Of a stretch of 64,000 nucleotides of DNA, positions 4,772 to 21,290 are shown piece by piece. This DNA comes from Escherichia coli (lineage in GTDB: Bacteria > Pseudomonadota > Gammaproteobacteria > Enterobacterales > Enterobacteriaceae). The notes under the pieces are model-generated. The model made no database searches, was not told the DNA's origin, and worked only from the letters and a program-made list of their open reading frames with translations. The number at the start of each line of letters is the position of its first letter. Position 1 is the stretch's first letter. The stretch is taken from the NCBI RefSeq assembly GCF_001677475.2, contig NZ_CP015229.1. One strand, given 5' to 3'. The translations under genes were made by a program, and so were the position numbers.

Positions 4772-5083
4772 TTAGCCGGGCTGTGTGCCAGTCTTGCGGG
4801 GTTTTTGAGAAGGCGATGTGCTTTTTGGCCCATCAGGGGAGAGAGACGGACTGATCTGCCCAGCAGCCTCATTTGTTTCGTTACTCATCAACCACGTGGT
4901 GTATTTTTTAAAGTTCGGATGCATTGTGATTTTCAGTAAAACCTCCGTCCCCACACCTCTAATACCAGTCTCATATTGCTTAACTGTACCAACCGCAATA
5001 CCTATTGAATCCGCGAACTTTGCCTGGCTAAGTCCCTCAGATTCTCGAATTGCTTTTAGCTTCTTTGATATCTCTATTGACAT
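4772..5083 (-). CDS. C: immunity repressor, P2 C-like (HTH)
   Basis: 103-aa ORF upstream of int, divergent from cox; HTH and C-terminal tail resemble P2 C. Confidence 0.8.
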   Translation of the reverse strand: MSIEISKKLKAIRESEGLSQAKFADSIGIAVGTVKQYETGIRGVGTEVLLKITMHPNFKKYTTWLMSNETNEAAGQISPSLSPDGPKSTSPSQKPRKTGTQPG

Positions 5084-8378: not shown

Positions 8379-8768
8379 ATGATTGACGCTCATGACTTCA
8401 CAAGATGGGTGCGCACACAGGACACCCGTCTGGCTCCCGTTCTTCAGGGATTATTTGATCTTTACATCCGTGGTCGTGACAACAGAGCACGCACTACAAA
8501 ACCGGAGAATGCGGACACCCTTTATTTCACAGTAGACGACTGCTACCGCGTGGACTTCACACCACACGGGCTGGCGTTGCACTGCCTGACACCACACGGC
8601 GAATCACTGCTGGCGTATTACGACTCCCCGGCCTCCGTATTTGCGGCAATGCTGGCGCATCGCACTGCTGGCGGGTGTGCCTCGCTGAGTGAATACACCG
8701 CTGAATTTAACCGCCTTTCCGCCATCTTCTCGCAGGAGTGGCAGCGCGTGACGGGATACCAGCCATGA
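8379..8768 (+). CDS. hypothetical protein; stop overlaps start of gene A
   Basis: 129-aa ORF; ATGA overlap at 8765-8768. Confidence 0.5.
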   Translation: MIDAHDFTRWVRTQDTRLAPVLQGLFDLYIRGRDNRARTTKPENADTLYFTVDDCYRVDFTPHGLALHCLTPHGESLLAYYDSPASVFAAMLAHRTAGGCASLSEYTAEFNRLSAIFSQEWQRVTGYQP

Positions 8769-11605
8769 GTGAGTTTGCATGGAGCTGGAATGAACCACGG
8801 CCAGCCATTGATCCGGCCAGATTTACGGAGCGCAGGCAGGAAACTGAAACCGACCTGCAACGCGCCATCCGTTACTACCTTGAGGCAGACAAAAGGGCAC
8901 AGGAAGAACAGGAAGCGAAGGAAGAAGCCTTTTTCGCACAATCCACCGTGGGTAAAAAACTCATGGCATCCCTTGAGGAAGCCGGACAGCGTGAAAAGCT
9001 GGCACAGAGCATCATCAGTAAGCGCCGGGCAACAGAACAAGACACGGTAGCCCGTGCCTTTGCCACACTAAAGGCACTACCTGTTTATCTGCGTGAACCA
9101 CTGAGCCGCCACCTCTCTTTCCTGCGCAAAAAACAGGAAGCCGATCGCCGGAAAGGCAAAAAGAGCTGGCAGGCGGAACGCTATGCACGCGGAACCCTGC
9201 GCAAAATATTCGAACGTCTGGACCGCACCGACAGCCGCTGGCTGACACCGGGTTATCGCGCCCTTGCCGGACGCGAACGCCTGGACGATTTGCTTTACCT
9301 GCCGCAGCTCAACAAACACCAGATACAGACGCTGGCCACCATGACAGCGGCGATGTTCAGCAGCACCTTCGAAAAACTCTGCGATGGCTTTGGCGCGACT
9401 GATGGCGAGCTGACCATGGATGTAACGCTGAAGGCGTATCAGATGCTGGCCCGCATGGCGTTACACCTGCACGCCATGCCTCCGCATTATGACGTACTGA
9501 CAACAGACAAAGACCGGAGGAACGAACCAGACACAGAACTGCTGCCGGGCGCAATCCTTCGCCTGACCTGTGCGGAATGGTGGAAACGCAAACTGTGGCT
9601 GTTACGTTGCGAGTGGCGGGAAGAACAACTCCGAGCCGCCTGTCTGGTTTCCAGAAAAACATCGCCCTATCTGAGCCAGGACGCGTTAAGCGAGTTTCGC
9701 GCACAGCGCGAGAAAACACGCGATTTCCTGAAAAGTTTCATGCTGGAAAATGAAGACGGGTTCACGATTGATCTCGAGACGGTGTATTACGCGGGAGTAA
9801 GTAACCCGGTTCACCGTAAGGCAGAAATGATGGCCACCATGAAGGGACTGGAACTTCTGGCCGAAGCCCGTGGCGACAGAGCGGTGTTTCTGACCGTCAC
9901 CTGCCCGTCAAAATACCACGCAACAACGGAGAACGGTCATCCGAACCCCAAATGGAACGGGGCCACCATGCGCGACTCCAGCGATTACCTGGTTAACACG
10001 TTTTTTGCGGCGGTCCGCAAAAAACTGAACCGCGACGGCCTGCGCTGGTATGGCATCCGCACGGTGGAGCCTCACCATGACGGCACTGTGCACTGGCATA
10101 TGATGGTCTTTGCACATCCGGACGAGATTGAAACCATCGTGTCCCACGTCTGCGATATTGCCATTCAGGAGGACCGCCACGAGCTGGGCGATGACATAAC
10201 TCCGCGTTTTAAGGCGGAGTATGTCGACGGCTCAAAAGGCACACCAACCAGCTACATCGCCACCTACATCGGAAAGAACTTGGACAGCCGCGCCGTGGAT
10301 GGCATCGACCCGAAAACGGGCAAGCCACGCGTTGACCACGAAACCGGAAAATCAATGGCCGAGAGCGTGGAGCGCGCCATCGGCTGGGCGCGCCTTCACC
10401 GGGTCCGTCAGTTCCAGTTCTTTGGCATCCCCTCCCGTCAGGTGTGGCGTGAACTGCGCCGCCTTGCCAGCCAGATGGCACGCAATCCGGAAGGCCCGCA
10501 ACGGCTGAAAGATGATGCAATGGATGCGGTACTCGCTGCCGCCGATGCCGGGTGTTTTGCCACCTACATTGAAAAACAGGGTGGCGTGCTTGTTCCACGC
10601 AAGGACTACCTGATTCGCACCGCCTACGACCTCGCAGATGAGCTGAACGATTACGGCGAACAGAGCGTACAGATTTACGGGATCTGGTCACCACTCATCG
10701 GGGAATCCTCCCGTGTGTGCACGCATCCGGATAACTGGAAGTTGGTAAGACGTAAACCAGAACCGGAAGACAACGCCCACGAAAATGGTTTTGACCTTCA
10801 GGGCGGCCCTGCCGCCCCTTGGACTCGTGGCAATAACTGTCCCCGTGTACAGGAAACGGACAATAACGGGACAGAACTGCCGGAAGAACGGCCAGCACCG
10901 TGGCCGCAGCTCCCTGACGGCGTTGAAGTGAACGAATGGATGCGCTCACTGAAACAGCACGAACGCCGGGCGCTGATGCGTTCGCTTCGTGACAAACAGG
11001 CAAAAAACAGCAGTGATGAAATGCAGAGCTGGACACAGAGCCGCAAACAGCAGCGGCCTTTGCCTGATAACCACGAATTACTCGCTAAAGAATGGCGGGA
11101 GTCTGCTGAATCTCTCGGCCTGCATATCGGTGAACAACAGATGCAGCACCTGTTACGGGGCGGCAGCCTGTACGTTGACGGCAGCATCATTGCACCGCAG
11201 GGATTTGAAATTGTACGCAAACCGGATACCCGCCCGGACAGCCGAATCACGCAGCTCTGGCAGCGCCTGAGCCGTAATCATGGCGTAAGCAGCACGGAGA
11301 TCCGCCATAACCCGGTCGCCAGCTATCTGGCACAGCTGGGGGCATCAGACCCTGAAGTCGCCGCACGCCTGGCATCCACACTTCAGCAGGACCAGAACAC
11401 CATGAAAACACCCGTTACCGTGCTTTCTGACATGCTGCGCGCCATCCGCGACGCAGAGCACGCACAGAGAATCAGTGAAACCACTGAACGCGCCCGCCGC
11501 AAAGCAGACCTGCTGCGGGGTGGCCTGACCAGTGGAAACAAAAAACAGACAGAAACGGGACTCATGAATCCCGTAAATGAGCAAAAAACGCGCAGCGATA
11601 TATGA
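8765..11605 (+). CDS. A: replication initiation endonuclease, P2 gpA-like (rolling-circle HUH nickase) with long C-terminal extension
   Basis: HUH-type motif in GTVHWHMMVFAHPD; position after early genes; 946 aa from ATG 8765. Confidence 0.85.
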   Translation: MSEFAWSWNEPRPAIDPARFTERRQETETDLQRAIRYYLEADKRAQEEQEAKEEAFFAQSTVGKKLMASLEEAGQREKLAQSIISKRRATEQDTVARAFATLKALPVYLREPLSRHLSFLRKKQEADRRKGKKSWQAERYARGTLRKIFERLDRTDSRWLTPGYRALAGRERLDDLLYLPQLNKHQIQTLATMTAAMFSSTFEKLCDGFGATDGELTMDVTLKAYQMLARMALHLHAMPPHYDVLTTDKDRRNEPDTELLPGAILRLTCAEWWKRKLWLLRCEWREEQLRAACLVSRKTSPYLSQDALSEFRAQREKTRDFLKSFMLENEDGFTIDLETVYYAGVSNPVHRKAEMMATMKGLELLAEARGDRAVFLTVTCPSKYHATTENGHPNPKWNGATMRDSSDYLVNTFFAAVRKKLNRDGLRWYGIRTVEPHHDGTVHWHMMVFAHPDEIETIVSHVCDIAIQEDRHELGDDITPRFKAEYVDGSKGTPTSYIATYIGKNLDSRAVDGIDPKTGKPRVDHETGKSMAESVERAIGWARLHRVRQFQFFGIPSRQVWRELRRLASQMARNPEGPQRLKDDAMDAVLAAADAGCFATYIEKQGGVLVPRKDYLIRTAYDLADELNDYGEQSVQIYGIWSPLIGESSRVCTHPDNWKLVRRKPEPEDNAHENGFDLQGGPAAPWTRGNNCPRVQETDNNGTELPEERPAPWPQLPDGVEVNEWMRSLKQHERRALMRSLRDKQAKNSSDEMQSWTQSRKQQRPLPDNHELLAKEWRESAESLGLHIGEQQMQHLLRGGSLYVDGSIIAPQGFEIVRKPDTRPDSRITQLWQRLSRNHGVSSTEIRHNPVASYLAQLGASDPEVAARLASTLQQDQNTMKTPVTVLSDMLRAIRDAEHAQRISETTERARRKADLLRGGLTSGNKKQTETGLMNPVNEQKTRSDI

Positions 11606-11681: not shown

Positions 11682-12641
11682 ATGAAAATTTGTATCGACG
11701 ACGGCTCCACCAACATCAAGCTGGCATGGACTGAGAACGGCGAACGCCGCAACGCCATCAGCCCGAACAGCTTCAAGTCGGAATGGTCTGCGCCGTTCGG
11801 TGGCACGCAGCCCGCGAACTACATGCTTGATGGCGTGCGCTATGGTTTTGATCCGGTCAGCGATCGCTTTGTCCAGACGACCGACACGCAATACCAGTAC
11901 AGCGATGTGAATGTCATTGCCATTCATCACGCGCTGGTCAAATCAGGCATCACGCCACAGGAGGTGGATGTGGTTGTCACCCTGCCACTGAGCGAGTATT
12001 TCGACACAAACGCACAGCCGGACATGGCCAACATCAACCGCAAAAAAGCGAACGTTATGCGCCCGGTGGAGTACCAGAACGGCGAAGCATTCACTATCCG
12101 TAACGTGCGGGTTATGCCTGAATCCATTCCGGCTGGCTTTAAGGCACTGGCTGACATGAGTCCGTTTGAATCCCTGCTGATTGTAGATTTGGGCGGAACC
12201 ACGCTGGATGTGGCAAAGGTTCAGGGGCAACTGGCAGGTATCAGCCAGGTGTTTTGCGATCCACACGTAGGCGTTTCTCTGATGGCCGATGCCGTACTGT
12301 CGGTGATGGCCACTAACGGTATGCGCACCAGTCACCACATCGCCAATACCATTATCGAACATCGCCATAATGAAGCCTGGCTGCGCCAGCACATCCACAA
12401 TGACGCGCATTACGCCAGCCTGATGGAGGTTATTCGTGAAAAGGAAGAAACACTGAAACAACGCGTGATCCGCGCGCTGGCGGGTTTTTCGGGTTACGGG
12501 CGGGTGATGGTTGTCGGTGGAGGGGCGGAGATTGTGGCACCCGCTATCCGCGAAGCCTGCGGAGTTCATGCGACTTTCATCGCGGACGGGGTGCCACAGT
12601 TTGCTCTGGTTAATGGGCTGTACGCAATGGACAAGGAGTAA
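11682..12641 (+). CDS. parM: actin-like segregation ATPase, ParM/StbA family
   Basis: 319 aa; motifs IDDGSTNIKL, ISPNSFK, VMPESIPAG, DLGGTTLD, GGGAE, VNGLY parallel plasmid R1 ParM as recalled. Confidence 0.8.
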   Translation: MKICIDDGSTNIKLAWTENGERRNAISPNSFKSEWSAPFGGTQPANYMLDGVRYGFDPVSDRFVQTTDTQYQYSDVNVIAIHHALVKSGITPQEVDVVVTLPLSEYFDTNAQPDMANINRKKANVMRPVEYQNGEAFTIRNVRVMPESIPAGFKALADMSPFESLLIVDLGGTTLDVAKVQGQLAGISQVFCDPHVGVSLMADAVLSVMATNGMRTSHHIANTIIEHRHNEAWLRQHIHNDAHYASLMEVIREKEETLKQRVIRALAGFSGYGRVMVVGGGAEIVAPAIREACGVHATFIADGVPQFALVNGLYAMDKE

Positions 12642-12645
12642 ACCA

Positions 12646-12957
12646 ATGACGACACCAACCAGACGGATAAGTTTCTATCTGAAGCCTGCGGCCGTCAAGA
12701 ACGAAAGCGAAGCATGCGCCTGGCTGGACAGCCTTACACCAGAAGCCCGCAAAAGCGGCCAACGCGTGGCTTTTCTGGCCGGGCTGGCACTTCTGAAAAT
12801 GAATCCGGCAGAGGCTTACCGACTGGCTGCATGGGCTGACGATGAGGCGTTATCAGTGACACAAACCAGGACAGAATGCCCCGCGTCACAGCCAGTATCA
12901 ACCGCACAGATAACCAGTCAGATGGCCGGAAATATCCGGGCGTTATTTCCCGAATAA
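12646..12957 (+). CDS. parR: ParR/StbB-like partition adaptor (DNA-binding)
   Basis: 103 aa directly after parM; RRISFYLKP...LDSLTPEARKS...AFLAGLALL and C-terminal NIRALFPE resemble R1 ParR as recalled. Confidence 0.65.
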   Translation: MTTPTRRISFYLKPAAVKNESEACAWLDSLTPEARKSGQRVAFLAGLALLKMNPAEAYRLAAWADDEALSVTQTRTECPASQPVSTAQITSQMAGNIRALFPE

Positions 12958-12962
12958 CACAA

Positions 12963-12986
12963 CATCAGGGCGCATCCGCCCTGATG
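12963..12986 (+). terminator. hairpin after parR (catcagggcg-catc-cgccctgatg)
   Basis: 10-bp perfect stem; weak T tract, so terminator function is uncertain. Confidence 0.35.
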
Positions 12987-13020
12987 ACTTTAATCCGGGA
13001 ACATAAACAAGGGGGACACA

Positions 13021-13356
13021 ATGCAACACATTGACAGAGAAAAAGCGCAGCGACTGATTGAGCGAATGGAAGCGCTGGCGAAAGAAGAAAATGTCAACAT
13101 CCAAAAAATAGCTGAATGTGGCCAGATAGTTCTTCGTCGTGAAAAAGACATCAAGCAACTGATGTCTGGCGAAATCAGCAAAACATGGACTTCAGGCAAG
13201 AAGACGATTTATTGCAGCTTCTGCAATAAATCCCAGCACGAAGTCATAAAGGTGATTGCCGGACCGTCTGTTTACATCTGCAATGAGTGCGTGGATTTGT
13301 GCAATGAAATTATCAGAAGAGAAGTGACAGACCATGAAGAAAAAACGCATGAATGA
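13021..13356 (+). CDS. stand-alone ClpX zinc-binding-domain (ZBD) homologue with unique N-terminal region
   Basis: 111 aa; segment [39 protein letters not shown] closely matches the E. coli ClpX N-terminal C4 zinc-finger as recalled; no AAA+ module follows. Confidence 0.75.
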
Positions 13357-13418
13357 CGAATTTGACGGCTTTTAATTTTATCGGGGCACACTGTCTCCCC
13401 CCGCACGAGGAAAACACG

Positions 13419-13943
13419 ATGAAAAAATACGAATACATGCTAATGAAAGAAGCACTGCGGGCTGGTCTGGCTCCCTGTCCTGTATCCGTAGAAGCTGTTG
13501 TTGGGAACACGATTTTCCGAACGCTGCGAAATCGCGTATCCGTGAAGATGATTCACCAACCACCCAAATCTACCAGCATGATCTATCTGCCGCTGCCCGA
13601 GGCTATCAAACTTATGCGTTCGCTGAAATTTGCGATTTGGATGCAGACACAACTCAACAAAGCGGTGCAAAACACCTTCGTTAAGAAACTGATGCCGGAG
13701 CTTGCTGCCAGATGTGCAAAATGTACCAGACCCGCACTTCAATTTGATCTGTCATTGATTCAACAAGCTACGGAGGCAGAACTGTACCGCCTGTCACCTC
13801 TCCATGATGTTCACACGGAAGCCTCAGAAATGTTCCGGCTCATGTTTCAATTTAATTTTGCCGTTCGACGCACACGCGTTCAGGTCAATCGCATGATGCA
13901 GGCGCAGGAAGAGCTGACGCAACACAAAGGAGGCAACCAGTGA
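13419..13943 (+). CDS. hypothetical protein (cargo, gene A-proximal hotspot)
   Basis: 174-aa ORF from ATG 13419 with RBS; stop overlaps next start. Confidence 0.55.
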   Translation: MKKYEYMLMKEALRAGLAPCPVSVEAVVGNTIFRTLRNRVSVKMIHQPPKSTSMIYLPLPEAIKLMRSLKFAIWMQTQLNKAVQNTFVKKLMPELAARCAKCTRPALQFDLSLIQQATEAELYRLSPLHDVHTEASEMFRLMFQFNFAVRRTRVQVNRMMQAQEELTQHKGGNQ

Positions 13944-14464
13944 GCAAGATTGACTATCAGGCATTACGCGAACGCTATTCACCTGCGCCAGTACCGAAAT
14001 GCCCTATTTGCGGCGAGGAAATGTCAATTCAGCGAATATCTGGAGCACAGGTTGTTTATGCCTGCTCCGGTTATGGTGATGATGGAGATTTCAAAATTGG
14101 TCGAACTCTTGCCGACGAACATTATGAAAAATCGCGCGTAACAGTGTTGGATGTCGGGGATCCTGAAGTATTGGCGCTACTTGATTGGCTGGAAACTAAA
14201 GACAACCGAATCGCTGAACTGGAAAAAATCGCCACTGACTATGCACTTAAATTCCAGAAAGCACAGGACGCATTAAAGCATGCCGCTTTGCTGCATAGCC
14301 GGACGGCGCAACAAACAAATAATTTTGCAGTATCGCTTCCGGACATAAGCGAATATTTCATTAATGACGTATTTCAGCCCTTGCGATACGAGCGGGATGT
14401 TGAAAGAGCCATCATAAAGGCTGGCGGAAAAGCATTGTGGCAGGAGAAACACGACGACAGATAA
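13940..14464 (+). CDS. hypothetical protein with N-terminal CxxC...C zinc-ribbon-like motif
   Basis: 174-aa ORF ATGA-coupled to previous gene; CPICGEEM...YACSGYG. Confidence 0.55.
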   Translation: MSKIDYQALRERYSPAPVPKCPICGEEMSIQRISGAQVVYACSGYGDDGDFKIGRTLADEHYEKSRVTVLDVGDPEVLALLDWLETKDNRIAELEKIATDYALKFQKAQDALKHAALLHSRTAQQTNNFAVSLPDISEYFINDVFQPLRYERDVERAIIKAGGKALWQEKHDDR

Positions 14465-15041
14465 AAATAACACCTGATCTCCCTCAAACCAGGGCGATAA
14501 TCGCGCATCGCCCTGCTGCACAATAGTGCACAAATTTGCACAATTTTTTTGAACGACTTTTTGCCCTTCCGGCCCGCGTGGCGGCTGGATCCGTCAAGGA
14601 TCCGTGCGTGCACAAAAAAACGCGTTTTTTCTGCGCGCAGGTGACGGGGGAACAGCCCGCGTTTCAGGGGGTAAATAGCGTTCCCTTAACGATGTCGCAG
14701 CGACACGACAGAATGGCCGTATCGCTCACGCTGAGCGTGAAAAATACGTGAGGGATTCTGATTTGATGGGGTGAAAGGTAAGGCCGTCAAAATCGCACTG
14801 AGGCGGCGAGAACATGCAGTCAGCGCGGTGGGATTGTGTAGAGTCTGGCCGTCGATGATAGCGATAAGTCGGAAGATGTCGTGAAATTATCTGATTGATA
14901 CGGGAGCTGGAGAGCCGGGGCATAAATTTTTTATGCCCCGGCGAAGCAGCAGACAAGCGAAGCGCGTCAGTGATGCGGCACCTTGCCGACCACACTTCAT
15001 AAGTGCAAAATACGAGCAAAGAAATCAATGGAGGCTGTTTT

Positions 15042-15566
15042 ATGGTCATTAATTACAAGCAGTTACGAGAAAAACGAGAGCAGGTAAAGGAAAGTTTTCG
15101 CCGCAATGAAGATCTGACCCCGCTTGTACACCTTGCCCAGGGAATTGTTGATGCTTATGAAATCTCTCTGGAGCTGCCATCACAGACATGGACGGATAGC
15201 GACGGTAATCGCCAGCATTACGTTTCATGCGGACTGGAAACAACTGAAGGGTTTCGCAGAATGCCTTTATCTCAGATTCCTGCCGCTACCCCCAAAGCAA
15301 GGGGCGGCAATGATGAGCGAAAACTGATTTTCAGCATTGAGACAGTGGTTGACGACACACCTGGCGAAGTCGCGTTCGTGCATACTCCTCTTTCGATCGC
15401 AATGTATAACGATGAAATACAGGTTCGCGTTAATAATAATATCGTGCCACTTAAAGAAGGTAATTCACCATACACCACCGTTTGTGAAGCCATTCAATAT
15501 TACGTTCTCTCTGAAATTGATAATCTCAAGCCTGACGGCACCCAGAAAATGGTTCAACTCTGGTAA
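15042..15566 (+). CDS. hypothetical protein between cos region and portal gene
   Basis: 174-aa ORF convergent with Q; the ORF-track alternative start is 15003. Confidence 0.5.
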   Translation: MVINYKQLREKREQVKESFRRNEDLTPLVHLAQGIVDAYEISLELPSQTWTDSDGNRQHYVSCGLETTEGFRRMPLSQIPAATPKARGGNDERKLIFSIETVVDDTPGEVAFVHTPLSIAMYNDEIQVRVNNNIVPLKEGNSPYTTVCEAIQYYVLSEIDNLKPDGTQKMVQLW

Positions 15567-15580
15567 AAAGGACAGCCCCA

Positions 15581-16627
15581 TCACGGGGCTGTTTTTTCAT
15601 CAAGAAGAGCATAAGAATTAAAACGGATCACCTCTTCGCCAAGCCAGTCATTGATATGCTTCATAGCCTCCATGACGGGCATCAGCTCGTTAATTGCGTA
15701 AACCCGCGCGGCCTTCTCCACATCACCAAACGCACTTTTTTCACCCGGCATCGCCCCCATCAGTTGCGGCGGAACGCGGTGCGCAGCCAGCACATCATCA
15801 CGGGATGCCGCCTTAACATTCATGAACTCATCCTTTGCGGTGATCTGCTGGAACGGCAAAATTTGCACCCCCTCTTTGCCCCCGTTGGGCGCATGAATGA
15901 GCACGTTTTTAAACGCACCACCACCACGCGCACCCTGTAGCGTTTCTTTCAGGGAGTCCATGCTTTCGCGGTTTACCTGCGCTGCACCGATGTAGATGAT
16001 GCACCCGGCGTGGGATCCGTTGTCGTAATACAGTTTTCTGAACATGTCCGCCGAATGAGACAGGCTGGCCGAGAGTAATGCGCCGAGATATTCCGGCATG
16101 CCGTAGATTTCCTGGTTAATGTCAGGATTCATCAGGTGGCACACTTTGCTTGGGCGAAACTGAAACGCGTCCTTGCCATCCTGCACATACCACCATGATT
16201 CAAGATCGCTTCCGCGTCGCATGTATTTCGCCAGGGCGTGCCGTAATTTAAGCGGTTCGCCGAGCATATTGCTTCGAAGCTCAAGGAATGCGTTACCGAA
16301 CACAAACCAGTCCAGCGCCAGCGCCGAGAAATCCTGCCGGGAAAGCAGCGGGTGCGGGATGTAGCAACCGAGTAATACATTGCGCTTAAAGTAAAGCGCA
16401 GACTGATGCCAGGACGTTTGCCGGGCAGCTCTTGCCAGACCGTACCAGTCCACCGGGGTTTCATACCACCGCCCGTTATCAGCACAGTACATATTGTCCA
16501 GCAGGTCATGCCCGGTCAGGCGATAAGGACCATCAAATGTGAATGCACTGAGCGATGATTCTTTCCTGAGCGCATCAGCGAGATCAATGCGTGAACTCAT
16601 GCGCACTTTTTTATTTTTTCTGCTCAT
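15581..16627 (-). CDS. Q: portal protein, P2 gpQ-like
   Basis: 348 aa; position and orientation as P2 Q, overlapping P. Confidence 0.85.
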   Translation of the reverse strand: MSRKNKKVRMSSRIDLADALRKESSLSAFTFDGPYRLTGHDLLDNMYCADNGRWYETPVDWYGLARAARQTSWHQSALYFKRNVLLGCYIPHPLLSRQDFSALALDWFVFGNAFLELRSNMLGEPLKLRHALAKYMRRGSDLESWWYVQDGKDAFQFRPSKVCHLMNPDINQEIYGMPEYLGALLSASLSHSADMFRKLYYDNGSHAGCIIYIGAAQVNRESMDSLKETLQGARGGGAFKNVLIHAPNGGKEGVQILPFQQITAKDEFMNVKAASRDDVLAAHRVPPQLMGAMPGEKSAFGDVEKAARVYAINELMPVMEAMKHINDWLGEEVIRFNSYALLDEKTAP

Positions 16628-18378
16628 CAGAACTCCATAACCGTGAAACGCTCGTTTTCTCCTTCGCCGCCAATCGGTTCGTTAATGACAGCAAGCATGG
16701 TTGCCCACGCAAGGTCGCCGTGGCTGATCCCCCTCGCGCGGTCCGTTTCGTAAGTGATAAAGCCGCCCGGTGTTTTCACCTTACGCACGGCGTTAAAGGC
16801 CGCGACCAGCTCGCGTTCGGCGCGATCGTATTCCCAGCGCCCGGCACGCATTATTTGCAGCATTTTCAGTACCAGCGACCGTTTTGATGACAGCGTGAAG
16901 GTGTACGGAATAGCAGCAGGGAAAAACCGTTTCACTATCTGATAAACAGCCTCCCCGTTCCCGCCCGTCACATCAATGCCGATGTGTTCCACGTTGTAGC
17001 GATACGTGAACTCTTCAATGACTCTGGCCTGTTCTTCAAACTCCAGCCCCTGAACGCGTCGCGTCTCCACCGTTCGAAAACGGCCACCAGGAACAGCCGG
17101 AGGAACCACCACGGACACAGCGCCGCTGTCGCCGTTGCCACTGCTGCCGTTTGCGTCATACCCAATCCATACCAGACGATTCCCCATCGGGCGGGGAGCA
17201 AAAGGTTTCCAGTCTTTCCAGTCGTCGTATCCGTCAACACCGCAGCCAATCAGGATATTCAGGTTAAATGCCGATTCCCCTTCGCGAACAAACTCACACA
17301 TATAGAGATTGAGGAACTCGTCTTCGGTGTTTTCATCACGGATTTCGTCAATATCGGTGTGTTTCCAGCCGTGATTAACCACATCTTCCAGCGTGACAAT
17401 TTGCCGCCACGTCCGGTCAGGGCAGATAAGCCCGTTATGCAGCGTTTTCCAGTCCACAGAAAAACGCTGGCGTTTATGCGAGGCCTTTTTCTCGTTCCAG
17501 CGGTCGCCGTTCCAGTAGGCGTATGCCTCGTGCGTTTCGGTGGATGGCGTGGAGAAGTAGGTGCGCCGCAGTCCGCTGAGGGTTGCCATAGCGCCAGCCA
17601 CCTTGCGCAGTTCAGCAAAGCGACTGACCCAGAAAAATTCATCAAAATAAAAATTGCCCGTATAGGACTGTGCCGACGCAGCAGAAGTGCCGAGAAAATG
17701 CAGCTCTGCGCCGTTGGAGAGGATGATTTTATCGCCCCCTTTCAGCTCCACATCAACTTCAGCCGCGGCCTTCTGAATAATGCTTTTAAACTGGAACGCC
17801 TGACGACGCGACGCAGACAAAAAAATCTGGTTACGCTGGTAAGGTTGCGCCACATCGTCACGCAGCGCCATCAGCAGCGCTTCCTGTGCAAAATACCAGG
17901 TTGCCCCAATCTGTCGGGATTTCAGGATCATCCTGTTACGTATCCCGGCTTCCCTGCAAAGGGTCAGGGAGTCAAACCAGCCCCGCTGATGCCACTCCAG
18001 CCTGCTGATGATTTTTTCCCGCAGTGCGGCAATCTGTTCCGGCGTGAAATGATTTTTGAGTTTTTTCGCCCGGCCTTTCTTTCCTGCGGCCATCACATCC
18101 GGCTGGCCATCATGCAGCTTTTTAAGCTGCCGGGTCAGCAGGTCTATTTCCTTAAAGTCACCGCCTGTTTTATTCTGTTTTTCAGTAAGCTGGATGAGGC
18201 GCGCATCGATGGACTGCGTGACACGCTGCACGGGTGGCGCTTCATCCCACTGGTCGCGTTTTTTCCACGCATAAATCGTGTTCGGGTTTATTCCCATCAG
18301 ACGTGATATTTCTGCGGGCGGATAACCCTGCCAGTAAAGTTGCCGCGCACGCTGGCGCACAAAAGCGTCCTGAATCAT
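16627..18378 (-). CDS. P: terminase large (ATPase) subunit, P2 gpP-like
   Basis: 583 aa; synteny with Q; divergent from O. Confidence 0.85.
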   Translation of the reverse strand: MIQDAFVRQRARQLYWQGYPPAEISRLMGINPNTIYAWKKRDQWDEAPPVQRVTQSIDARLIQLTEKQNKTGGDFKEIDLLTRQLKKLHDGQPDVMAAGKKGRAKKLKNHFTPEQIAALREKIISRLEWHQRGWFDSLTLCREAGIRNRMILKSRQIGATWYFAQEALLMALRDDVAQPYQRNQIFLSASRRQAFQFKSIIQKAAAEVDVELKGGDKIILSNGAELHFLGTSAASAQSYTGNFYFDEFFWVSRFAELRKVAGAMATLSGLRRTYFSTPSTETHEAYAYWNGDRWNEKKASHKRQRFSVDWKTLHNGLICPDRTWRQIVTLEDVVNHGWKHTDIDEIRDENTEDEFLNLYMCEFVREGESAFNLNILIGCGVDGYDDWKDWKPFAPRPMGNRLVWIGYDANGSSGNGDSGAVSVVVPPAVPGGRFRTVETRRVQGLEFEEQARVIEEFTYRYNVEHIGIDVTGGNGEAVYQIVKRFFPAAIPYTFTLSSKRSLVLKMLQIMRAGRWEYDRAERELVAAFNAVRKVKTPGGFITYETDRARGISHGDLAWATMLAVINEPIGGEGENERFTVMEF

Positions 18379-20489: not shown

Positions 20490-21290
20490 ATGATTACTCC
20501 TGCACAGCAACACTGGCAGAACGTGATGGCACAGCGCGCAGGCCGGGCGAATGAAGGCGTGGACCACGCCGCGCGTACCGCGCATGAAGAGGTGCTGTAT
20601 CGTCTGCGTCTGGCACAGGCCCGGCTTAAGGGCGTACAGGCCAGAAGCGCGAAAGCCGCCATCAAAAAAGAGTTGTTGCCGGATTTTTCCGGCTGGATTG
20701 AGGGAACGCTGGAGGCTGACGGCGGGCAGCAGGATGAAGTGATTGCCACGCTGATGGTGTGGGCGATTGACTGCGGCGATCTTCCGCTGGCGTTGCGTAT
20801 TGGTGCGTATGTGGTCCGTCATAACCTCATTATGCCGGATAACTTTGGCCGTACTGCTGCCACGGTACTGACCGAAGAAATCTGCAACCCGGTACTGACG
20901 CAGGCCGGGACGGATGCCGACGCGGATTTATCCGCCTTTATCGAACCACTGGATACCCTCCGGGAGATTGTCACCGACCAGGACATGCCGGACGAAGTGC
21001 GCGCCAAATTATGCAAGGCGTGCGCCTTTGCCCGTCGTGGTCTGAGTGATGCGGACAGCATGGCCCTGTCACTGAAGCTGCTGCGCGAAGCAATGCACCT
21101 GAACCCGAACGCAGGTGTGAAACGCGAGATTGCAACCCTTTCCCGCGCCCTGAAAAAAGCCGATTCCGCAGCCGCACCAGAAGACGCCAGCGCACAGCAA
21201 ACGCAGGACGAAAGCAGCAAAAGTAAAAAGACAACGCGGAAGCCTGCAACACGAAAAACCACCGCGACGCAGAAGGCGAAGCGCGGTTAA
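20490..21290 (+). CDS. M: terminase small (endonuclease) subunit, P2 gpM-like
   Basis: 266 aa; MPDEVRAKL and AGVKKEI-like motifs shared with P2 gpM as recalled. Confidence 0.8.
   Translation: MITPAQQHWQNVMAQRAGRANEGVDHAARTAHEEVLYRLRLAQARLKGVQARSAKAAIKKELLPDFSGWIEGTLEADGGQQDEVIATLMVWAIDCGDLPLALRIGAYVVRHNLIMPDNFGRTAATVLTEEICNPVLTQAGTDADADLSAFIEPLDTLREIVTDQDMPDEVRAKLCKACAFARRGLSDADSMALSLKLLREAMHLNPNAGVKREIATLSRALKKADSAAAPEDASAQQTQDESSKSKKTTRKPATRKTTATQKAKRG

Follow-up and report, generated by a model that had tools for sequence, protein, structure and literature searches.

A probable P2-type cos site of divergent sequence in a P88-like prophage of Escherichia coli

A stretch of 64,000 nucleotides from Escherichia coli (the window; contig NZ_CP015229.1 of assembly GCF_001677475.2) carries a prophage of the P2 family that is P88-like (Xuanwuvirus, Peduoviridae), and positions 14517–14676 of the window are very probably the cos (cohesive-end packaging) site of this prophage, which would be intact. 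The assignment is based on position, architecture, conservation and the presence of the block in a satellite-like island; the exact nick positions (to within ~2 nt), the overhang length and the pairing of protein with repeats are what we infer from these. A first-pass annotation, made from the sequence alone, had expected a P2-type cos at the P2-equivalent position, centred on the 19-mer ggtgacgggggaacagccc, which lies exactly where it was placed, at 14640–14658. That expectation is borne out by the architecture of the region, by phages with intermediate sequences, by conservation and by the satellite. By position and architecture the predicted cos belongs to the P2/186/P4 type, as a divergent branch of a known system, and a hairpin and a 174-aa open reading frame (ORF) found nearby are ordinary features of such loci. 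The general view of packaging in the P2 family is unchanged, and is extended to a divergent branch.

Position and architecture of the block

The order of genes in the prophage, with A, accessory genes, a non-coding block and then Q, P, O, N and M, is that of P2. The block follows the region downstream of A and precedes the portal gene Q, whose 3′ end faces it; Q and P are transcribed in its direction. P2 and 186 have the same arrangement. A non-coding stretch ahead of the packaging genes had been noted before and is present, but its length is 577 bp rather than the ~540 bp given. The features of this stretch as far as the end of the cos block, together with the genes whose products would act on it, are as follows.

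14465–15041: stretch of 577 bp without a called gene
14517–14550, plus strand: three phased TGCAC repeats (14517, 14527, 14537) and then a T-run; predicted far recognition array of cos and left conservation boundary
14551–14604, plus strand: cos-block spacer GCCCTTCCGGCCC, moderately conserved, with two copies of GGATCCGT at 14587 and 14598 (direct repeat D3)
14605–14639, plus strand: near element abutting the predicted nick, with TGCAC at 14609–14613, the palindrome AAAAAACGCGTTTTTT at 14615–14630, and GCGCGCA
14640–14658, plus strand: G-rich 19-bp core GGTGACGGGGGAACAGCCC, predicted from conservation and register to be the cohesive end (left, Q-proximal 5′ overhang)
14659–14676, plus strand: conserved right flank of the core, GCGTTTCAGGGGGTAAAT, where the cos block ends
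15581–16627, minus strand: portal gene Q (gpQ homologue; Pfam Phage_portal; 47% identity to P2 gpQ)
16627–18378, minus strand: terminase large subunit (gpP homologue; 44% identity to P2 gpP over its full length)
20490–21290, plus strand: terminase small subunit (gpM homologue; 36% identity to P2 gpM, E = 1e-41)

The architecture becomes apparent when the right and left genome ends of P2, 186 and P4 are joined and the region upstream of the left nick is inspected. In these three genomes the motif TGCAT recurs at −123 (−124), −111, −101 and −29, and in the window TGCAC recurs at −123, −113, −103 and −31 from the 19-mer. A short inverted repeat lies between the last TGCAY motif and the core in all four, and in the window the near element as a whole (14605–14639) is an imperfect inverted repeat of 15 nt (I1 and I10). 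This flanking layout was derived here from the P2, 186 and P4 sequences, and not from the literature.

The core itself is a weaker guide. It had been thought to resemble the cohesive ends of P2 and 186, and a likeness is indeed present when the sequences are compared, with 13 of 19 positions shared with P2 cosL and 11 of 19 with the 186 cos, but it is not significant alone. Fifteen other 19-mers in the window match P2 equally well, so similarity by itself proves nothing, and raw resemblance of the 19-mer to the cos sequences of P2, 186, SEN4 and Smp131 was dropped as sole evidence. Within the 577-bp interval, ~0.13 matches of 13/19 quality would be expected by chance. Two Klebsiella phages have intermediate sequences. 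In phage 3LV2017, GCGCGCA is followed by GGCGAGGCGGGGGAGCAAGC, the first 12 nt of which are those of the P2 cos, so that a P2-type start (GGCGAGGCGGGG) is joined to the left flank found in the window. In phage Kp4845-1, GCGCGCA is followed by GGTGACGGGGGGCAAGCCC, which is in register with the window core and differs from it at three positions.

Conservation of the block

Across 102 distinct relatives, the profile of conservation delimits the block on both sides. The majority-base fraction is 0.4–0.6 left of 14516 and rises abruptly at 14517 to 0.93–0.99 over the repeats (14517–14550); it is 0.73–0.86 in the spacer (14551–14604), reaches 0.99 at TGCACAAAAAA and 0.90 at GCGCGCA, and falls from 0.85 to 0.68 past 14680. 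Peaks therefore coincide with the repeats, TGCACAAAAAA, GCGCGCA and the core, and decay sets in after ~14680.

To avoid selecting on the 19-mer, the upstream repeats alone were also used as an anchor. Of 143 loci recovered in this way, ~131 carry the exact 19-mer at +114, and the others carry variants of one to a few bases. At least 120 IMG/VR contigs contain the 19-mer without a mismatch, always 270–950 nt ahead of the portal stop. Among them are lineages that are 68–81% identical in Q and 73–85% in P but only 29–56% in A, and the block is kept beside the portal even where the cargo that separates A from cos is entirely different.

Enterobacter phage phiT5282H (Novemvirus) has only 75% identity over the block and is unalignable beyond, with similarity ending at ~14661–14680. 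It keeps GCGCAGGTGACGGGGGAACAGCCC exactly and the TGCAC array almost exactly. The TGCAC repeats are likewise near-identical in the satellite-like island described below. The spacer 14551–14604 differs in sequence in both the island and phiT5282H, with its length kept.

A satellite-like island with the same block

The exact 19-mer also occurs in a 12.7-kb island (L123, L141), found in 54 complete E. coli genomes, that is without portal, terminase, A or tail genes. Its DNA matches the window over 14516–14676 (81% over 162 nt). Elsewhere the only matches are two segments that are short, weak and unrelated, and between its capsid protein and the gpN of the window identity is just 35%. P2 and P4 have been reported to have only cos in common (PMC9122126), and the island, which shares little beyond 14516–14676, parallels this sharing. 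It would accordingly be a mobilisable satellite, of a family for which no description was found in the literature searched. Classical P4-type satellites (psu, delta, sid) with this cos were not encountered among ~190 fetched loci, where only the capsid-carrying island family was seen.

A further locus from IMG/VR (L199) has the full cos block with the exact 19-mer, no portal within 7 kb rightwards, and only a fragment of gene A. This may be a degraded prophage or an element of another kind.

A model for recognition and cleavage

By analogy with P2, the phage terminase would consist of the gpM and gpP homologues. The gpM homologue is the expected reader of the TGCAC repeats, and the terminase would recognise three of these at −123, −113 and −103 and one at −31; cleavage would be the task of the gpP homologue. 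With one nick at each side of GGTGACGGGGGAACAGCCC (14640–14658), staggered between the strands, 19-nt 5′ overhangs would result, as in P2, 186 and P4, and the left end of virion DNA would be at 14640. The limited identity of the two subunits to their P2 counterparts, 36% for M and 44% for P, fits a recognition site that has diverged together with them. The repeats are 2 nt further from the core than those of P2, and the register is therefore uncertain by ~2 nt.

Comparison with known cos sites

The cos sites of P2, 186 and P4 have 19-nt 5′ cohesive ends, GGCGAGGCGGGGAAAGCAC and GGCGTGGCGGGGAAAGCAT (Ziermann & Calendar 1990, cited in PMC9122126). The block in the window resembles them in lying between the accessory region that follows A and the 3′ end of the portal gene; in having a G-rich 19-bp core that begins GG(C/T)GA; in having four TGCAY motifs at near-equal offsets and a short inverted repeat ahead of the core; in its asymmetry, with ~125 nt on the A side and 20–40 nt on the Q side; in being shared with a satellite element without packaging genes; and in being accompanied by homologous gpM and gpP subunits.

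It is distinct in several respects. The core differs from that of P2 at 6 of 19 positions, and all of the repeats are TGCAC rather than TGCAT, with a phasing of 10/10 nt instead of 12/10 nt. The near inverted repeat (AAAAAACGCGTTTTTT) is AT-rich where its counterparts are GC-rich, and TGCGCGC stands before the core in the window and after it in P2, 186 and P4. With terminase subunits only 36–44% identical to those of P2, these differences together suggest a separate packaging specificity.

Predicted cos sequences in other Peduoviridae include ggcgaggcgggggaacgag of Salmonella phages SEN4 and SEN5 (PMC5261728) and GGCGTGGCGGGGAGACGAG of Smp131 (PMC3931495). Together with those of 3LV2017 and Kp4845-1, these are variants of one core and were assigned by analogy with P2. 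The variant in the window (GGTGAC...CAGCCC) was in none of the papers found for GGTGACGGGGG. The paper describing P88 does not mention cos, and a literature search returned no published cos site for P88-like prophages.

Knowledge of this ~160-bp signal should allow P88-like genomes to be given their correct orientation and termini, cos-plasmid or phagemid vectors to be designed for a P88-like helper, and the satellites that a given helper packages to be predicted. Of most interest among the by-products are the capsid-carrying satellite-like island with this cos, and the fact that TGCAT is consistently replaced by TGCAC, a change in which helper specificity may be encoded.

Alternative readings of the block

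The block might instead be another cis element, mainly a parC centromere for the ParM/StbB-like partition genes or, failing that, a replication origin or regulatory region. ParM (11682–12641) and a Plasmid_stab_B protein are encoded 1.5–3 kb upstream, and centromeres are typically short phased repeat arrays, as are the three TGCAC at 10-bp spacing. The same layout, though, is present in P2, 186 and P4, which are without ParM and in which the site is an experimentally defined cos. Furthermore, the block stays by the portal when the cargo between A and cos is different, and it is kept in the satellite island without partition genes. The parC reading of the repeats was rejected on the grounds that P2, 186, P4 and the satellite share the layout without ParM, and a non-packaging role of any of these kinds is scarcely credible.

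A cos within the block whose cohesive ends differ from the 19-mer, or whose overhang is of a different length, is improbable to a lesser degree. One candidate is GCGTGGCGG (14577–14585), which reproduces positions 2–10 of the 186 cos, nine consecutive bases. The nick sites are predictions, the record of phage P884B11 starts at window position 14562, and deletions touching the 19-mer in two virion-derived assemblies could imply that it is dispensable. Set against this, 14570–14599 is the least conserved part of the block (0.73–0.76) and differs in the satellite and in phiT5282H, whereas the 19-mer and the adjacent GCGCA are the most conserved and are in register both with the P2-like core of 3LV2017 and with the TGCAY offsets. 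The P884B11 record is, moreover, a plain circular permutation. Its start had been considered as a physical end and was discarded (LR595891), as the two ends join without redundancy and the start is an arbitrary opening of a circular assembly. Physical ends were also sought from the ends of records and contigs; no record starts at the core, and the IMG/VR loci are contig sub-ranges and so are uninformative.

Several observations weigh against the placement of the cos on the 19-mer and against the view taken here of its surroundings. The 13/19 identity of the core to P2 is at chance level in 64 kb, and the repeats are displaced by 2 nt relative to those of P2. No mapped virion ends were found in the literature for any P88-like phage, and no phage-collection record starts or ends at the core. 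Two virion-derived assemblies, Chuche and P884B11, have small core deletions of 7 nt and 5 nt, respectively; should they be real, the requirement for the exact core is looser than proposed. Beyond the block, the hairpin is without a U-tract and is hence no canonical intrinsic terminator.

The deletions in Chuche (L009) and P884B11 (L001) sit opposite window positions 14648–14660. The 7 nt of Chuche are inside the core, and in P884B11 the 5 nt are missing at its 3′ edge, together with one base change. Artefacts of assembly at the physical ends of the DNA could account for them, as could true variation.

The hairpin and the spacer before it

Two features lie beyond the cos block on the side of Q.

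14677–14913: lineage-specific non-coding spacer from cos to hairpin, alignable only among P88-like phages
14914–14942: perfect inverted repeat with 13-bp arms, GCCGGGGCATAAA TTT TTTATGCCCCGGC (arms 14914–14926 and 14930–14942, 3-nt gap)

The first-pass annotation had reported an 8-bp perfect-stem hairpin, ggggcata-aattttt-tatgcccc, at 14925–14951. A perfect stem does exist, but the quoted letters are at 14917–14939, 8–12 nt away, and belong to a larger structure with 13-nt arms. It folds at −30 kcal/mol, with z-scores of −7 to −8 on both strands, and none of 200 shuffled sequences was as stable, which puts it well outside what chance would give.

The hairpin had also been counted as part of the cos region, a claim that does not hold. 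It is missing from phiT5282H, from the lineages with ~70% identity in Q and from the satellite, all of which have the cos block, and so it is not part of cos. In P88 and in two further relatives without the 174-aa ORF (L016, L032) it lies 26 nt past the Q stop; in the window the cassette with this ORF intervenes. In phiT5282H a stem-loop of its own occupies the equivalent place after the portal. These positions make the hairpin the likely counterpart of the terminators tQ of P2 and tW of 186, and we infer that it may be an ancestral transcript-end or 3′-stabilising stem-loop of the P–Q operon.

The likeness to tQ and tW lies in a stable stem-loop ~5–30 nt from the portal stop in relatives without the 174-aa ORF. 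The window differs from P2 and 186 in two ways. The letters after its stem are GGCGAAGC (plus strand) and GCUCUCCAG (minus strand), neither of which is a U-tract, so that one defining feature of an intrinsic terminator is absent on both strands; a terminator scan did not call the structure. Its cassette, in addition, puts ~640 bp between the hairpin and Q, and a terminator at 15567–15597 appears to have taken over the role.

That the hairpin is instead a working part of the packaging signal, acting in termination of packaging or as a cosQ-like element, seems very unlikely. It is perfect, very stable, 256 nt from the core and invariant among P88-like phages, all of which would suit such a role. 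On the other hand, it is not found in phiT5282H, the ~70% group or the satellite despite the shared 19-mer and repeats; in relatives that lack the ORF its place, 26 nt beyond the end of Q, is that of the annotated terminators of P2 and 186; and, whichever side cargo has entered, the genes that flank it are always convergent.

The sequence between the 19-mer and the hairpin behaves as non-coding. In 55 distinct relatives the three codon phases have 39, 32 and 31 variable sites, and nearly every indel is 1 nt long. Small ORFs annotated between cos and hairpin in some relatives were rejected as genes: they are inconsistent in position and strand, show no codon periodicity and are interrupted by 1-nt indels. 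An Rfam search gave no match in the region, and at E ≤ 1 only a chance nadA hit outside it.

At 14693–14710, 35 nt past the core, there is a dyad of the form TGT-N12-ACA (TGTCGCAGCGACACGACA), the outer triplets of which are kept in P884B11 and 569R5 while the inner bases vary. It resembles the site of the Ogr/Delta activators in P2 late promoters. As a candidate site of this type it was set aside, one copy being within chance and the P/O late-promoter region of the phage being without the pattern.

An accessory cassette on the portal side of cos

The region between the hairpin and Q is occupied by an insertion with the following parts.

14979–15617, plus strand: inserted accessory cassette (moron) of ~640 bp, delimited by its junctions relative to P88
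15042–15566, plus strand: 174-aa ORF of PHROG 5091 (ATG at 15042, TAA at 15564–15566, GGAGG ribosome-binding site at 15031–15035)
15567–15597: canonical bidirectional intrinsic terminator between the ORF and Q, with the Q stop codon inside its loop

An extra ORF between the cos region and Q had been noticed in the first reading of the sequence, with coordinates that are exact, and comparison with P88 confirms that it was inserted. The left junction follows ...gcgcgtcag (14978) and the right junction is at ~15612–15618; the cassette replaces ~30 nt of the P88 arrangement, the last Q codons included. Its GC content is 45–49%, against 52–57% in the packaging genes. Of the 1145 complete E. coli genomes with the region, 396 have the cassette, as do about a fifth of the IMG/VR loci.

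In the proposed course of events, the cassette (14979 to ~15617) would have entered between the hairpin and Q, bringing its own ribosome-binding site and a terminator that now ends Q as well. The terminator scan called this structure as a 9-bp stem with a T-run on the minus strand (inverted repeat I6); it folds at −21.5/−18.2 kcal/mol (z −5.1/−4.5) and has a U-run on both strands. A promoter scan of the plus strand upstream of the ORF called none, the best candidate by eye being TTGCCG-17-CAAAAT at 14983–15011, with 8 of 12 matches. Accessory genes evidently enter the portal side of cos as well as the gene A side.

The ORF is a real gene under strong purifying selection, with a dN/dS of 0.08–0.14 at a dS of 0.13–0.19 among 19 alleles. 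It had been described as unrecognised, which is correct in part. It has no Pfam, NCBIfam or PDB sequence match, and no PADLOC family at E ≤ 0.1, but it can be assigned to PHROG 5091 (E = 7e-67). Its AF2 model has a pLDDT of 82 and no significant structural neighbour. Homologues with 46–87% identity are present in E. coli, Salmonella and Trabulsiella. Remote homologues (25–40% identity) lie between the antiterminator Q and the holin gene of lambdoid prophages, and one is inside a myovirus baseplate module; the remote homologue gene is at 5001–5486 in L135, L136, L138 and L139, and at 5001–5474 in L134. In some P88-like phages a distant paralogue of 167 aa (hhalign probability 98.3%) is inserted in the interval from cos to the hairpin. 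As this is on the other side of the hairpin, the same protein family has been captured twice in the interval between cos and Q. In L032, L016 and L114 the paralogue occupies 333–836 nt past the 19-mer.

The interval between gpA and gpQ is a defence hotspot of P2 (Rousset et al. 2022, PMC9122126), also treated in a more recent preprint (bioRxiv 10.64898/2026.02.27.708500), and from its genomic contexts the 174-aa ORF reads as a recurrent accessory gene (moron) of this hotspot. Like the cargo of the P2 hotspot (old, tin) and other morons, it is an insertion relative to close relatives, has a lower GC content than the core genes, comes with a ribosome-binding site and a terminator of its own, occurs in some but not all of otherwise near-identical prophages, and lies inside the hotspot interval. 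It is distinct from old and tin in being on the Q side of cos, where these and the other cargo of the window are on the A side, and from catalogued defence proteins in having no similarity to any of them (PADLOC).

Whether it acts in defence is a separate matter. The ORF might be no neutral passenger but a factor of the gpA–gpQ hotspot that, as a single gene, provides anti-phage defence or counter-defence; this is possible but on balance doubtful. Its location in the hotspot interval described in the two studies above, the strong purifying selection, the independent capture of a distant paralogue (98.3%) across the hairpin, and the occurrence of remote homologues in lambdoid prophages, where they occupy the classic moron position flanked by antiterminator Q and holin, all favour such a role. 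So does its nature as a small alpha+beta protein without enzymatic motifs, with weak fold neighbours that include chaperone, immunity and inhibitor proteins. Our guess would be a small cytoplasmic protein-binding factor in phage–host or phage–phage conflict.

A broader proposal, which we put forward only tentatively, is that the TGCAC-type cos defines a packaging-specificity group apart from P2, 186 and P4. Its users would be the P88-like phages, which occur in roughly one in five complete E. coli genomes, and a satellite family would exploit it as a pirate. Members of this family combine a P4-like integrase, AlpA, primase and Ogr/Delta module with a P2-family capsid gene of their own, which replaces sid and psu. 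The proposal further takes the family of the 174-aa ORF (PHROG 5091 and remote relatives) to be a new conflict protein, captured repeatedly at late-gene boundaries.

The prophage and its remaining cargo

The nearest phage records are P88-like, of the genus Xuanwuvirus, with 91–95% identity; P88 itself can be induced (PMC5285337). On the chromosome the prophage is flanked by btuCED-nlpC and the chb operon, where identity to E. coli genomes is 99%. The region is present in 1145 of 5426 complete E. coli genomes. Upstream of the non-coding stretch the genes are as follows.

8738–11605: replication gene A
11682–12641: ParM
after ParM and before 13021: Plasmid_stab_B protein
13021–13356: ClpX-zinc-finger protein, 111 aa
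between the ClpX-zinc-finger gene and the Ead/Ea22-like gene: 196-aa ORF without a family
13940–14464: Ead/Ea22-like gene

Between the Ead/Ea22-like gene and the cos block, on the variable cargo side, is a perfect 9-bp inverted repeat at 14490–14515 (CAGGGCGAT N8 ATCGCCCTG), which has no T-run and is not kept in relatives. The cargo between gene A and cos thus extends over 11682–14464 and comprises the ParM/Plasmid_stab_B pair, the zinc-finger protein, the 196-aa ORF and the Ead/Ea22-like protein. ParM and its partner are kept in P88, 569R5, Chuche and P884B11, and the genes to their right vary among relatives.

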